DNA from: an uncultured Syntrophorhabdaceae bacterium | GTDB taxonomy: Bacteria; Desulfobacterota; Syntrophorhabdia; Syntrophorhabdales; Syntrophorhabdaceae | NCBI GenBank assembly: GCA_964532465.1 | Contig: CAZHHX010000019.1 | Location: 589 to 64,588 of the forward strand | Direction of reading: 5' to 3' | DNA length: 64,000 nt | In this document: positions 14,513 through 52,741 of the stretch, piece after piece | Numbering within the stretch: the first letter of the stretch is position 1 | Layout: the number at the start of each line of letters is the position of its first letter | Translations under genes and position numbers: made by a program | The notes under the pieces: model-generated | Database searches by the model: none | What the model was told of the DNA's origin: nothing | The model's input: only the letters and a program-made list of their open reading frames with translations

Positions 14513-14868
14513 TGCAGCATCTCCTTTCTGTTTTTAACGAACATAACGTGTCTCCGTACTTCATAAAAAACATTTCATAAAAAATTTTCATACCTACATT
14601 CACTGTGAATGTAAAATTTACTCAATTATCAAAACCAAAGCCTGTATTGACTTTACGTGGATTTTACCTTTTACAGCAACAGTTGCTGAAAATGTTTCAG
14701 ACACAGTGTCTGATAAGTCTTATTATTGAAGATTTGTGACTGTTTATTTTACTTCCCGCACGCTTTCCAGTCTGAAGAGTCTGATACCGGAAAGCGTTTG
14801 TTCTGATTCGAGACCAGAAGAAAGATGCCGCTGACAAAATAAAACATTGCCGCGAATAAAACCAATTA

Positions 14869-14970
14869 ATACCAAGTCGCGGCCAAACATTATATGTATG
14901 AATTACCGGGCATAATACCAAGTAAGCTTTCAATAAAATCATAGTTTATTGTTTGAAAGCAACTTGGTAT
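14869..14970 (-). repeat. Dispersed repeat family 2, copy A (3'-end hairpin element)
   Basis: About 100 nt that hand-aligns with 51332-51428. It contains ATACCAAG twice plus inverted CTTGGTAT. It starts 10 nt after the stop of the minus-strand gene 14981-16210. Confidence 0.8.
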
Positions 14971-14980
14971 AAGATAATGC

Positions 14981-24420: not shown

Positions 24421-24544
24421 TTCCAATTCAAAATCAAAGCGCTATCTTCGTTGGCTTCGTCATCAGTCTCCTCGACGTACCGTGTAGTACGCCTCGTCGC
24501 TTCTTCCTTGCCGCCTTGATTTCATCTTTGATTTTGAATTGGAA
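24421..24544 (-). repeat. Dispersed structured repeat family 1, copy E1 (compact form)
   Basis: Perfect 19-bp inverted repeat TTCCAATTCAAAATCAAAG / CTTTGATTTTGAATTGGAA encloses an 86-nt GC-rich core with a CGTAC-N6-GTACG hairpin. TAA flanks both ends. Confidence 0.8.
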
Positions 24545-24724
24545 TAATTTACTATGCCGCATTCATACAATCGCCGCTTGACCCTTCAGGCAGAATCCCC
24601 TTATAATAAGGAAATTTGAAACAGGTATTGTCAAAAGCTGTATGAAAAAAATATACAGAGTGAGCATTAACAGATGTTTACAAGGAGAAAACAGGAGGAA
24701 TTATGGGAAATGAAGAAGGTCTTC

Positions 24725-24930
24725 TTCATTTCCGCCGGATTCACATCAGTAAATAATGGCAGATGGGAATCCGGCTTGAGTGGGCTGCGGCATTTTAGGG
24801 AAGGTTTCATTGCGAGTGGGCATTATCGAGCAACATTTTTACAGATATGGATGGGCTGTGAGCTTTGCAGGCTGGAGACGTACTGAACGTACGTTGGAAG
24901 ATCGCAAGGCGAAGCAGACCGCCGCAGATT
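24725..24930 (+). repeat. Dispersed structured repeat family 1, copy E3 (long form)
   Basis: 24848-24929 matches the reverse complement of 45740-45821 at 71 of 82 positions by hand count. The CCGGATTC...GAATCCGG hairpin and the TTGAGTGGGC block are also shared. Confidence 0.8.
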
Positions 24931-25016
24931 AAAAATTCTCAAATGCCGCTGCCCGACCAGGAGAGCAAAGGGAAGGAAATTTTTGACAAAATCCTGAAAC
25001 ACAAGGAGAGGCAGAG

Positions 25017-25559
25017 ATGAACGCAGTTATTTTATTCGGAAGCCCGCGAAAAGAGGGCAATACAATCCAGCTTACCGCCATATTTTCACAAATATTAAAA
25101 GAAAGAGGACATAACGTTCGAATCGTACACCTTAATGACCTGAACATCAGGCCCTGCCAGGGATGCCTTGCCTGTTTGCCGGAAGGAATATGCAAAATAA
25201 ATGATGATATGAAAGACATAGGGAAATATATTATGGAATCGGACATTATTGTCTATGCGACACCCATCTACTGGTTTTCACCCTCCAGTCAGTTGAAGCT
25301 TGTAATTGACAGGTCTATAGCGTTTCTTGATGAAAACTATGAGTCGCGGATCAAAGGGAAAAAGGCCGTCACCATTATGACCTGCGCTGACGAAGACAGG
25401 GAAACATGCAGGCCTGCCATAGATATGTTCCAAAAAACTTTCAGCCTCCTTGGCCTTGACTATGCGGGCGGCATTGAAGCAACCGGATGCGAACAGGAAG
25501 GAGCAGTGAAAGACGAGTATAAAGAAAAAACAAAAACACTTGCAGAATCAATAGTATGA
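25017..25559 (+). CDS. Iron-sulfur flavoprotein / NADPH-dependent FMN reductase family
   Basis: MNAVILFGSPRKEGNT start and CQGCLACLPEGIC cluster; a paralogue-like relative of 6990-7565. Confidence 0.75.
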   Translation: MNAVILFGSPRKEGNTIQLTAIFSQILKERGHNVRIVHLNDLNIRPCQGCLACLPEGICKINDDMKDIGKYIMESDIIVYATPIYWFSPSSQLKLVIDRSIAFLDENYESRIKGKKAVTIMTCADEDRETCRPAIDMFQKTFSLLGLDYAGGIEATGCEQEGAVKDEYKEKTKTLAESIV

Positions 25560-44968: not shown

Positions 44969-45622
44969 TTACCGCTTTAGAACTGTTTTTACAAGTTCCT
45001 CCGCATTCCTCTGCATTATATAAAAATCTTCCTCGGAAAGCCCAGCGCCTATTACTATCCTTTTAGCCCCATATTCTGTTGCCAGATCAGAGGGGCTGTG
45101 GGAATCCGTATTAAATACCAGCTTTGCGCCTGTTTTCTTTGCTGTTAATGCCACATGGCCATTTGTAAGGGAATGCCCCTTCCTGCTGCTGATTTCAAGG
45201 AGAACTCCTTTTTCCTGCGCAAATGCAGCATCTGCTTCTTTAATAAGACCGGGGTGCGCTATTATATCGGCCCCGCCTTCGATTGCCGCTCTGTTTGTCC
45301 CTTCTTCCACCGGCTCAGCAATGGTTTCTCCGTGAACAACTACATAGAATATGCCGAGCTTCCGGGCGAATTCAATCAATTCTTTAATAAGTCCTTTGGG
45401 AACATGAGTGATCTCTATTCCGGGAAGAATTGTTATGCCTTCATGATAGGTAATCTTCTCACTCAGCTTCAGTATTGAGCGGATAACCGTCTCTATATTG
45501 GTATGATCAACATGGTCGGATATTCCTATGGTTTTGTAACCTATAACTTTTGCCCTTCTCGCAAGCTCTGCAGGGAGCAGTACTCCGTCGCTTAATAATG
45601 AGTGAGTATGTAAATCTATCAT
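44969..45622 (-). CDS. PHP-domain phosphoesterase, likely histidinol-phosphatase
   Basis: MIDLHTHSLLSDG PHP motif. Function is inferred from adjacency to hisC. Confidence 0.7.
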   Translation of the reverse strand: MIDLHTHSLLSDGVLLPAELARRAKVIGYKTIGISDHVDHTNIETVIRSILKLSEKITYHEGITILPGIEITHVPKGLIKELIEFARKLGIFYVVVHGETIAEPVEEGTNRAAIEGGADIIAHPGLIKEADAAFAQEKGVLLEISSRKGHSLTNGHVALTAKKTGAKLVFNTDSHSPSDLATEYGAKRIVIGAGLSEEDFYIMQRNAEELVKTVLKR

Positions 45623-45716
45623 TTATTTTTCCTCTATTCCCTTTTTGGTATTGTCAAAAGTTCTCATCAAATTGTTTTGTTTCTTGAGCAGTTTTGTCTG
45701 CTTTTCACTTGGTCGC

Positions 45717-45900
45717 GCAACAGCATATTGAAAATGTCCATCTGCGGCGGTCTGCTGCGCCTTGCGATCCTCCAGCGTACATTAAGTACGCTTACGGCCT
45801 GCAAAGCTTGCAGCCCATCCACACCTGAACCATTTTCAATATGCTGTTGCCCACTCAACCCGGATTCACATATACGCTTATGTGAATCCGGAATAAAGAA
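45717..45900 (-). repeat. Dispersed structured repeat family 1, copy E2
   Basis: Perfect 20-bp inverted repeat (45717-45736 / 45831-45850) encloses a 94-nt GC-rich core with a GCGTAC-N5-GTACGC hairpin. An adjacent 13-bp perfect hairpin lies at 45860-45891. Confidence 0.85.
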
Positions 45901-46062
45901 AGGGGTGAATTTATTCATTTTCAATTCTATTTTTTACCTCCCCCTTATCTTATTTTGCAGAGGCTTGTCTACACACAAACTTCATATTAATTTTTCATGT
46001 AACTTTTGACAATATTCCCTTTTTTCTTTTGCAAGACAGACAAAAGAAACCGAATAACATAA

Positions 46063-51272: not shown

Positions 51273-51331
51273 AATCAAAACAGACAGCAACAAAAAGGCT
51301 ATCCCCCCGCCTCTATTAATGTTTACAGTTT

Positions 51332-51428
51332 ATACCAAGCCGCTGTCAAACATTATAAGTCTAATTTGCCGGGCATAATACCAAGTAAGCTTTCAAATAT
51401 TCATTGTTTATTGAAAACAACTTGGTAT
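51332..51428 (-). repeat. Dispersed repeat family 2, copy B (3'-end hairpin element)
   Basis: Aligns with 14869-14970. It abuts the stop codon of the minus-strand gene 51428-52741. Confidence 0.8.
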
Positions 51429-52741
51429 TATTTCTTTATTGTATCAAGGAGTCTTAATATATCCCTGGCTTCTTGCGAATTAATTCCATACTTTGTTACG
51501 GCTTTTTCAAAATTGCTTCTTGCGAGATGTTGTTTGCCTGTCTCAAGATAATACCACCCCAGATATTCGAACCCTTTAGCCTGGTTGCCGCCTCTTCCCA
51601 TCAGCATTCCATACCGCTGATATATCTCAGGATAAATCTTACCGTACTGCAATAATCCGTTTAAAACTTCCAGCGCCGCTCCTCTGTCTCCGTAACCTTC
51701 ATAGGCCTTTGCAAGAAAAAAACGGGATATAGGGGAAGTTTCGCCCCTTAAAACACTAATGGCATCCTCAAATTGACGGGCATTCACCAGGATTTCTCCA
51801 AGGAGCAGACTTCTGTAAGGCGAATTTATACTTTTTACAATACGGACAGAATCGCTTGCGTTGCCTATGAATGAGTACATAAGGGATATCCCGTATATTG
51901 TTAACGGATCATTAATATCTTTCCTGTATTTGTTCACCCATGTATCTCTCATTCCTTCCGTAAGAGGACTGTGAAGCACTTTGGTTCTTACCAACAGATA
52001 AGGAAAAAAAGCGCCGTCTATACGCGACTTACTTCCTGCCCAGGCTTTTTCAATTTTGACAATACGCTCTTCATGATAGGGGTGAGTCAGGAGATATTGC
52101 GGCAATGCCTTGTCGCCTCCTCCTGATCTCAATTTCTTTAAAAAATCAGCCGTGCCAAGGGCGCCATATCCGGCTTTATCTGCAATAGACGCGCCAACCC
52201 TGTCGGCTTCGTCTTCATCTTCACGTGAGTATTTGAGAGACAACGCCATGGCAGAAGCGCTTCCGGTTGCAAGTATCGTTGATTTCGCTTTCGGGTCAGG
52301 AATCAACATCCCTGCCATAAGAGCGGCTAACATACCAATATTGATATATTTGTCTTTCTCCAAACGCTTCGCAATATGCCTTTTTGCGTTATGGGCAAAC
52401 TCGTGAGCAATTACTCCGGCTACTTCTTCCTCCTTATCGCACATCCCGATAAGCCCGGTTGTCAGGTATACATAACCGCCGGGTGTGGTAAAAGCATCAA
52501 CCGAAGTCGATTCTATAACGGTAAGCACCATGGGAAATGGTAAATTTGCCGCGGCTTCAAGGTTGTCTTTTATATTGCCCAAATATATGGAGATATACGG
52601 ATCAGTATTAACAGCTACGGAATTGGCTATCTGAAGGTATACTTCCTGTCCGTATTTCCTTTCTTCCTCAAGCGTTAAACCATACAGTTGCATTGGAAGA
52701 AATAATATGAGGAATATTATTACAGAATATCTGAATTTCAT
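51428..52741 (-). CDS. M48-family Zn metalloprotease with C-terminal TPR region (BepA-like)
   Basis: Signal peptide, HEFAH zinc motif and TPR-like C-terminal half. Confidence 0.8.
   Translation of the reverse strand: MKFRYSVIIFLILFLPMQLYGLTLEEERKYGQEVYLQIANSVAVNTDPYISIYLGNIKDNLEAAANLPFPMVLTVIESTSVDAFTTPGGYVYLTTGLIGMCDKEEEVAGVIAHEFAHNAKRHIAKRLEKDKYINIGMLAALMAGMLIPDPKAKSTILATGSASAMALSLKYSREDEDEADRVGASIADKAGYGALGTADFLKKLRSGGGDKALPQYLLTHPYHEERIVKIEKAWAGSKSRIDGAFFPYLLVRTKVLHSPLTEGMRDTWVNKYRKDINDPLTIYGISLMYSFIGNASDSVRIVKSINSPYRSLLLGEILVNARQFEDAISVLRGETSPISRFFLAKAYEGYGDRGAALEVLNGLLQYGKIYPEIYQRYGMLMGRGGNQAKGFEYLGWYYLETGKQHLARSNFEKAVTKYGINSQEARDILRLLDTIKK

Follow-up and report, generated by a model that had tools for sequence, protein, structure and literature searches.

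The window analysed here, a stretch of 64,000 nucleotides (G000:C19:589-64588), belongs to a genome of 3.94 Mb, assembled in 90 contigs, with a G+C content of 42.7% (G000). It carries two full copies of a 370-bp repeat, termed type A, on opposite strands (E3 and E2), and one copy of a shorter palindromic repeat, termed type B (E1). The positions of these repeats and of their parts are given below, where TIR stands for terminal inverted repeat, SD for Shine-Dalgarno sequence, and R1 for a covariance model of the rod constructed in this study.

24421-24547, minus strand: E1, a type B copy, a 127-bp palindromic repeat (R1, 17 bits)
24578-24607, plus strand: host sigma-70-type promoter TTGACC-18-TATAAT (11/12), upstream of E3, conserved in G001
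24617-24624: 5′ copy of the E3 target duplication, TGAAACAG, a 7/8 match to 24995-25002
24625-24994, plus strand: E3, a full 370-bp type A copy, delimited with an nhmmer model of 54 copies and by TIR anchoring
24625-24638, plus strand: left TIR of E3 (family consensus GGTATTGTCAAAAG)
24706-24733, plus strand: 5′ hairpin GGGAAAUGAAGAA/UUCUUCAUUUCC; other subfamilies have different pairing sequences or a deletion
24734-24775, plus strand: hairpin P0, GCCGGAUUCACAU...GGGAAUCCGGC; its sequence is free, its pairing kept in all genomes
24776-24960, plus strand: the rod, a long irregular hairpin (R1 match 24813-24957, 111.8 bits)
24979-24994, plus strand: right TIR of E3 (consensus CTTTTGACAATACC, in E3 TTTTTGACAAAATCC)
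24995-25002: 3′ copy of the E3 target duplication, TGAAACAC, followed directly by the SD AAGGAGAGG and by the ATG at 25017
45639-45646: 3′ copy of the E2 target duplication, AAAAAGGG, 16 nt before the ATG at 45622
45647-46016, minus strand: E2, the second full copy (rod 45712-45857; R1, 159.4 bits)
46017-46024: 5′ copy of the E2 target duplication, AAAAAGGG on the minus strand

E2 sits between two same-strand genes. In the case of E3, a host promoter lies just upstream and is kept in G001, where the site is empty; E3 is therefore located inside the 5′ UTR of the downstream gene (leader about 20 nt).

The initial annotation had described positions 24725-24930 as a structured element of about 200 nt that ends roughly 90 nt before the start codon of the downstream gene. 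This observation proved to be real, though too narrow. A recount of the match between 24848-24929 and the reverse complement of 45740-45821 gave the same figure, 71 of 82 positions; the block reported upstream of it (CCGGATTCACA...GAATCCGG-YTTGAGTGGGC) is found in E3 and E2 alike, and in both copies the RNA sense is, as had been noticed, the orientation of the downstream gene. Motifs from the 24848-24929 block occur at only these two places in the window (0 expected in shuffles), and the two window copies both fold far better than their dinucleotide shuffles (fold energy z scores of -6.5 and -11.7). The real repeat, however, is about 370 nt long, 24725-24930 being the middle part of E3, and it runs to 22 nt (E3) or 24 nt (E2) before the start codon.

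Nor are the copies a mere handful. The 206-nt query alone finds more than 40 places in G000. An nhmmer model extended into the flanks detects similarity over ~370-420 nt at about 55 places, plus about 35 fragments, and a count of full hairpin-plus-rod cores gives 58, which puts the number of full copies at about 55-58. An alignment of 54 copies shows sharp boundaries of the unit, the start (GGTATTGTCAAAAGTT) and the end (AACTTTTGACAATACC) being mutual reverse complements. So are the consensus ends, GGTATTGTCAAAAG(TT) and (AA)CTTTTGACAATACC, which make up TIRs of 14-16 bp; in the whole-element fold of E3, the terminal repeats pair with each other. Read from 5′ to 3′, the type A unit opens with the left TIR and a variable region in which an SD-like GGGGGAGG occurs; next come a hairpin, subfamily-specific or deleted, the P0 hairpin (CCGGAUUCACAU/AUGUGAAUCCGG, with many covarying variants) and a linker (CUUGAGUGG), and then an irregular rod of 146 nt, an A-rich, C-poor tail and the right TIR. 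In E3, the 5′ closing strand of the rod truly lies at 24781-24802, displaced by an insertion of ~37 nt that is also found in another copy (G000:C9:59271), identical over 206 nt.

Some copies depart from this scheme. A variant left end, GGTAATGTCGATAT, is present in three of them (C31, C9:6460 and C29:44696), and those of C31 and C9:6460 are also alike in the flanking sequence beyond it. At G000:C31:39595-40071, directly after a full element comes the inner part of a second copy, which begins just before the SD-like AAGGGGGAG of that copy. The arrangement may reflect a nested insertion at the internal SD-like motif (G000:C31:39705), but the duplication is not adjacent and we did not count it as evidence.

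Target duplications of 8 bp, identical or nearly so, flank many copies (for example CAAAATTA, ATGTATAA, GTCAGCTT and AACGTTTC). Among the 25 two-ended copies, 11 match at 7 or more of the 8 positions, whereas permuted partners would give 0.47. Both window insertions can be compared with empty sites in G001, a genome of the same genus. At the E2 locus, G001 has a single target copy and reads ...GAAAAAAAGGAATGGAGAG...ATG; at the E3 locus, the target likewise occurs once (TTTGAAACACAAGGGGAGG), the sequence being ...GGAAATTTGAAACACAAGGGGAGG...ATG. The comparison indicates that insertion postdates the split from the sister species. Older insertions exist as well: one, upstream of a phosphomutase-like gene, is common to G000 and G002 and partly decayed, and another, upstream of ligA, is found in G000 and G005, in G000 as a fragment only (model positions 114-192).

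Most of the properties by which MITEs are recognised were found in the type A element: a length under about 500 bp, absence of coding content, TIRs, a fixed 8-bp duplication and empty sites. That the element is mobile we infer from these footprints only. In the reading that we consider probable, it is a non-autonomous DNA transposon (MITE) of ~370 bp, a co-transcribed mobile 5′-UTR cassette whose insertion is directed by the SD. One of the readings offered by the initial annotation, that of a structured repeat spreading into 5′ UTRs, is borne out by the TIRs, the 8-bp duplications, the empty sites of the sister genome and the covarying stems described below. A match of the copies to a known IS or MITE family had been named there as grounds for refutation; in kind, the anatomy is that of a MITE, but Rfam gave no hit and the papers searched contain no account of such an element from these taxa.

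No parent IS or transposase with the same ends was found in G000, G001, G002, G005, G073 and G078; most of these are draft MAGs, a kind of assembly in which IS copies are often missing, so that the negative result weighs little. In G000, pairs of TIRs 0.6-4 kb apart enclose only unrelated ORFs, and no multi-copy transposase was found. TIR pattern scans of five relatives yielded MITE-sized pairs only, apart from one 980-bp pair in G005. The latter (G005:C198:56-1035, L148) represents an element of ~980 bp with a ~600-bp insert between its TIRs; a 311-aa ORF that runs across it was dismissed as an artefact of reading through the rod. ORF clustering over 98 rod-bearing loci, aimed at a recurrent neighbour protein, gave no family beyond orthologous contexts.

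The right end of the element always lies in the sense orientation of the downstream gene. Where the right end can be recognised (51 copies), it is followed by the 8-bp duplication, then by some A-rich bases, by GGAGG and, after a spacer, by the start codon. The AGGAGG window begins 9-13 nt past the right end (mode, 12) and the start codon falls at +20 to +26. We scored as positive any position followed by at least 5 of the 6 bases of AGGAGG at +9 to +13, a start codon 3-9 nt further on and an ORF of at least 50 aa. By this strict rule, 36 of the 51 right ends precede a same-strand gene; the rate is 0.24% for 200,000 genome positions drawn at random (binomial P about 1e-82), and none of 44 left ends read outward qualifies. 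The same placement, with target duplications, recurs at other genes in G002 (another species) and in G005 (another genus). Over about 40 unrelated genes in the three genomes, the standard deviation of the spacing amounts to 1.3-1.7 nt. Hence the element sits between the host promoter, or the preceding operon gene, and the ribosome-binding site.

The genes downstream are diverse. Sixteen of their proteins match 20 Pfam families, each in one protein only, including FMN_red, PHP, DBI_PRT, His_Phos_1, AICARFT_IMPCHas, ParB_N and Response_reg. Since the downstream genes are unrelated, a metabolite riboswitch is unlikely. The simplest account of the spacing is an oriented insertion directed by sequence; selection, if it acted alone, would need to have the same effect at each of the genes. 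Near-perfect TIRs normally go with both orientations, and the single orientation seen here needs either asymmetric subterminal sequences or strong selection. We suggest that an SD-like motif at a fixed distance would direct insertion by way of functionally different ends, and that the SD-spaced position may be a "safe site", at which both the coding sequence and the ribosome-binding site are spared.

The structure of the rod was analysed in two alignments. RNAalifold, applied to 28 sequences in a MAFFT-only alignment, gave 61 pairs, 34 of which are changed on both sides. In an R1-based alignment of 55 matches from many genomes, 94.7% of the cells are in standard pairs; the figure drops to 81% with shuffled partners and to 32-40% with slid partners. 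Changes on both sides affect 40 of the 49 rod pairs in the 55 sequences, and none of 500 shuffles reached the observed values. The latter alignment (A4) is fitted to the model structure, so that its pair counts are somewhat inflated, and the MAFFT-only alignment agrees with it. Among the 41 distinct cores of G000, G·U cells exceed A·C cells by roughly 9:1 (195 versus 22), and pairs with any G·U number 31 versus 13 with any A·C. This asymmetry argues that the pairing is selected on this strand.

Pairing kept throughout the family includes that of CUGC with GCAG and of UUUGC with GCAAG (helices 4 and 5), which form pairs in 97-98% of cases and show many double changes. Covariation extends to the tip of the rod: it is here that GCGTAC-N5-GTACGC in E2 becomes ACGTAC-N5-GTACGT in E3, exactly as first described. 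The other change put forward by the initial annotation, from CTGCAA-GCT-TTGCAG in E2 to CTGTGA-GCT-TTGCAG in E3, is correct as to the substitutions but not as to pairing in the family at large; two of the six pairs of this hairpin, with which helices 4 and 5 compete, fail in 11-24 of 55 diverse copies. A CAGAUG 5′ strand stands opposite a CAGAUG 3′ strand, with conserved G·A/A·G mismatches between covarying Watson-Crick pairs. The rod loops, that is, this CAGAUG/CAGAUG tandem G·A, the GCGUAC...GUACGC tip and AACGCCGCAGAUGG, probably serve a conserved factor as a site of binding or processing. The P0 hairpin precedes the rod in distant genomes too and its pairing also covaries. Searches of Rfam 15 returned only tRNA for the window at the gathering threshold, only chance hits well below the cut-offs for the region at E<=10, and no match on the rod at nine loci of other genomes; the element is thus unclassified with respect to Rfam, as had been supposed.

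Promoter-like sites inside the element are weak, including the TTGTCA-17-TAATAT at its left end. That the right TIR might drive the gene, by way of a sigma-54 promoter or as the -35 box of a sigma-70 promoter, was considered and rejected by eye, the spacing being unfit and the -10 place taken by the SD. Integron attC sites, retrons, bridge RNAs and omega RNAs were also considered, and seem at odds with the anatomy of TIRs and target duplications, the dispersed copies and the want of a partner gene.

Within the order, 47 of 96 genomes have full-length R1 matches, among them all 22 from one family and 24 of the 68 from the window's family, and the carriers usually have many copies per genome. 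Named carriers, detected by a pattern scan and confirmed with R1, are Syntrophus and Syntrophorhabdus, including the cultivable S. aromaticivorans UI; pattern hits in Desulfobacca, Desulfobacterales and non-Desulfobacterota MAGs had no R1 confirmation and may be due to chance. In a sample of the phylum, weaker full-length matches occur in 20 of 151 genomes, and the best of the phylum-wide matches retain CAGAUG, GCGUAC...GUACGY and AACGCCGCAGAUGG. The rod is an old module, multi-copy across the order and found in a diverged form across the phylum. Other genera have P0, the rod and a purine-rich tail without TIRs of the G000 type, sometimes 30-65 nt before a start codon. At one locus (L046, G078:C39:135029-138174), the rod lies ~100 nt from the 5S rRNA gene that closes an rRNA operon on the opposite strand; the terminator-like hairpin that follows the rod is located between the two and may belong to the rRNA operon.

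Type B shares core motifs with the rod; in E1, these are AGAUG..AAGGC, GCGUAC..GUACG and GAAGCC.AACG..AGAU. G001 lacks E1 at the modC stop codon and has the target only once there, E1 being an insertion with TAA on both sides. There are 26 full type B copies in G000 (e.g., G000:C7:111863-111989 and C1:84299-84426), with termini TTCCAATTC.../...GAATTGGAA (terminal stems of roughly 20 bp) that adjoin TAA. They often lie exactly at stop codons, in both orientations relative to genes. G·U exceeds A·C here too, by 27 to 2 in 10 sequences only. Folding of one DNA strand, or a transcript of its own, fits the mixed orientation and the G·U excess of type B as well as selection at the mRNA level does.

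Other repeated sequences are present as well. The window contains a second pair of long hairpin repeats at 14863-14974 and 51326-51438 (direct repeat D1, "repeat family 2"), on which R1 scores a weak 17.7 bits, by virtue of the hairpin shape and not of conserved motifs. In addition, G000 has at least eight paralogous ParB_N genes (in C28, C23, C1, C2, C3, C17, C21 and C69) of the pattern MATKKT..EF.YLPLGSIIVEEQ(I/V)RS... (e.g., C28:-:31356); one also lies downstream of an element at C52:929. Several ParB_N genes are preceded by GTGAATA-type heptamer arrays, which translate as "FTIHYSL".

None of the RNA runs searched for this organism's DNA contain it; metagenome runs X7-X10 do contain this population. 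Two lake metatranscriptomes yielded many short contigs, of 89-307 nt, that are ~85-93% identical to P0 plus rod, with a word depth of up to 134 each and of up to about 2,200 when summed. These contigs, which carry no strand information and come with no DNA control, are compatible with abundant RNA from relatives, although as evidence they are weak. We propose that the element would be transcribed within the mRNA leader of the downstream gene. Upon read-through from upstream, its two terminal repeats would pair, closing the element into a compact domain; the A-rich, C-poor tail of ~60 nt and the host SD would stay free, allowing translation to continue. The promoter-like site at the left end may add some transcription. 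Host fitness at each insertion would then select those lineages whose RNA folds into a closed domain, harmless or useful, and we infer that the compensatory changes between subfamilies arose because well-folding element lineages were tolerated. The rod itself may serve transposition, bind a host factor or be processed, for instance by RNase III, by analogy with Correia elements.

The constraint on the rod lends itself to other explanations. The rod could be a cis-regulatory RNA, responding to a protein, an sRNA or a ligand and conveying one signal to about 55 unrelated genes, with the transposon as a mere vehicle. Conservation of its loops between families and, though in a diverged state, throughout the phylum would suit such a role, and so would the fixed place beside the ribosome-binding site, the rods that other genera carry shortly before start codons without the TIR chassis, and the precedent of the Neisseria REP2 repeats found upstream of co-regulated genes (PMC3184786). 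Yet the downstream genes have no function in common, old insertions common to several genomes decay (as did the ligA copy in G000), and the type B relatives follow stop codons in both orientations; nor is there a conserved alternative fold that could act as a terminator or sequester the SD, which belongs to the host and is outside the element. On balance, we find this explanation unlikely. The same facts about gene function and decay tell against the dedicated leader or riboswitch-like RNA that the initial annotation had also entertained. A covarying structured domain is present, but a coherent gene set and an expression platform are not: no terminator-like site was found, and the host SD lies beyond the unstructured A-rich tail. 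The non-structural parts, too, are 72-100% identical among copies, which also speaks against a dedicated leader. A broader scheme would make the rod the RNA or folded-strand partner of an SD-reading transposition system, which would place the element always facing the same way and at a set distance from ribosome-binding sites and, through the conserved factor-binding rod, would also wire dozens of unrelated genes into one post-transcriptional circuit, an ancient phylum-wide module having been repackaged into different chassis (type A with 8 bp, type B with TAA); such a scheme strikes us as rather improbable.

It is equally doubtful that the fold matters in DNA, with the rod acting in single strands as a strand-specific site for a transposase or recombinase, in the manner of REPIN/RAYT or IS200/IS605, and its RNA being incidental. 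The rod is indeed an imperfect palindrome, on whose reverse strand R1 still scores 51 bits; G·T is the mildest mismatch in DNA as well, type B keeps the strand asymmetry although it occurs in both gene orientations, and in G029 a gene resembling those of Y1 (HUH) transposases is found ~300 nt away from one of the rods. Against this, TIRs and target duplications of fixed length are marks of DDE-type cut-and-paste and not of HUH enzymes, and replication strand bias would not lead one to expect co-orientation with the gene or a fixed spacing to the SD. The RAYT link prompted by the G029 rod was abandoned: homologues of the Y1 family are multi-copy in 74 of 96 genomes of the order, do not correlate with rods, and are as common in rod-free genera (g10, 7/7; g6, 17/20), and the Y1 gene of G000 is not flanked by a rod. 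The latter gene (G000:C31:34264-35226; L149:1378-2433) encodes 351 aa with, by eye, the look of a C-terminal helix-turn-helix. As for small protein genes or leader peptides, suggested by the common "ESGLSG..." peptide, a single long frame can be traced through the consensus, with the SD-like GGGGGAGG and an ATG near the left end. However, the core is without any open frame in 26 of 41 distinct copies, and just one frame is common to the remaining 15; one-base indels number 126, no clear periodicity by codon is seen, and E2 and E3 differ in frame, so that conservation is, as initially stated, at the level of nucleotides and not of peptides. A coding function is most improbable.

A MITE directed to SD sequences is the favoured reading. 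If the targeting is real, it would constitute a new "safe-site" strategy of transposons and would offer a natural route by which many genes acquire a common 5′ UTR, with a possible use as a tool to tag or reprogram leaders. The rod, for its part, is an unclassified structured motif with strong covariation, multi-copy in syntrophic Desulfobacterota (Syntrophus, Syntrophorhabdus and relatives), and the R1 model makes its family searchable. These bacteria are hard to grow, and their RNA biology is, to our knowledge, almost unstudied. Full-text literature searches that paired MITEs or repeats with Syntrophus, Smithella or Syntrophorhabdus returned no account of such an element.

Oriented, host-sparing insertion at a fixed distance is known from Tn7 at attTn7 and from ISs that target REP sequences; Tn7 is mentioned in PMC10969869 (section 1). 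These safe-haven transposons use one site or a repeat, whereas the determinant suggested here is an SD motif found at thousands of genes. REPINs, which are inverted REP doublets without TIRs or target duplications, depend on a single-copy RAYT gene. Like the element described here, they consist of long, imperfect palindromes in many copies, retained over long spans of evolution; unlike in the REPIN/RAYT system, the Y1-family gene does not co-vary with the rods.

Among transcribed repeats, bcr1 of the Bacillus cereus group shows compensatory changes that keep a double-stranded RNA structure (PMC3184786, section 8); it is about 155 bp long, folds as a cruciform with two stem-loops and is flanked by 5-bp direct repeats (PMC3184786). 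It resembles the type A element in being small, non-coding and dispersed, in the short direct repeats at its flanks and in RNA-level compensation. The two have no sequence similarity, and bcr1 is not reported to keep a set position with respect to ribosome-binding sites, as opposed to the 370 bp, 8-bp duplications, 146-nt rod, tie to the SD and single orientation found here. Correia elements (CREE/NEMIS) and ERIC are MITEs co-transcribed with their neighbours into long RNA hairpins, and they can supply promoters or processing sites for RNase III or RNase E (PMC10969869, section 4.1; PMC3184786). They form a simple hairpin through their terminal repeats, insert at TA or AT-rich targets in both orientations and have no fixed spacing to ribosome-binding sites, whereas the conserved structure of the type A element is internal and its core common to a phylum. 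The Neisseria REP2 repeats (and the Borrelia IR) come closest in position, lying in sense orientation directly upstream of many unrelated ORFs and containing internal stem-loops (PMC3184786, sections 11-12). [quoted passage not shown] A 2024 review of prokaryotic MITEs lists only loose preferences for intergenic regions or 3′ UTRs and no SD-directed insertion (PMC10969869, section 3.3), and in the literature searched we found no description of a MITE at a fixed distance upstream of the SD in a single orientation. MITEs with structure at the RNA level were already known; it is the SD-fixed placement, the orientation and the constrained internal fold that go beyond them.
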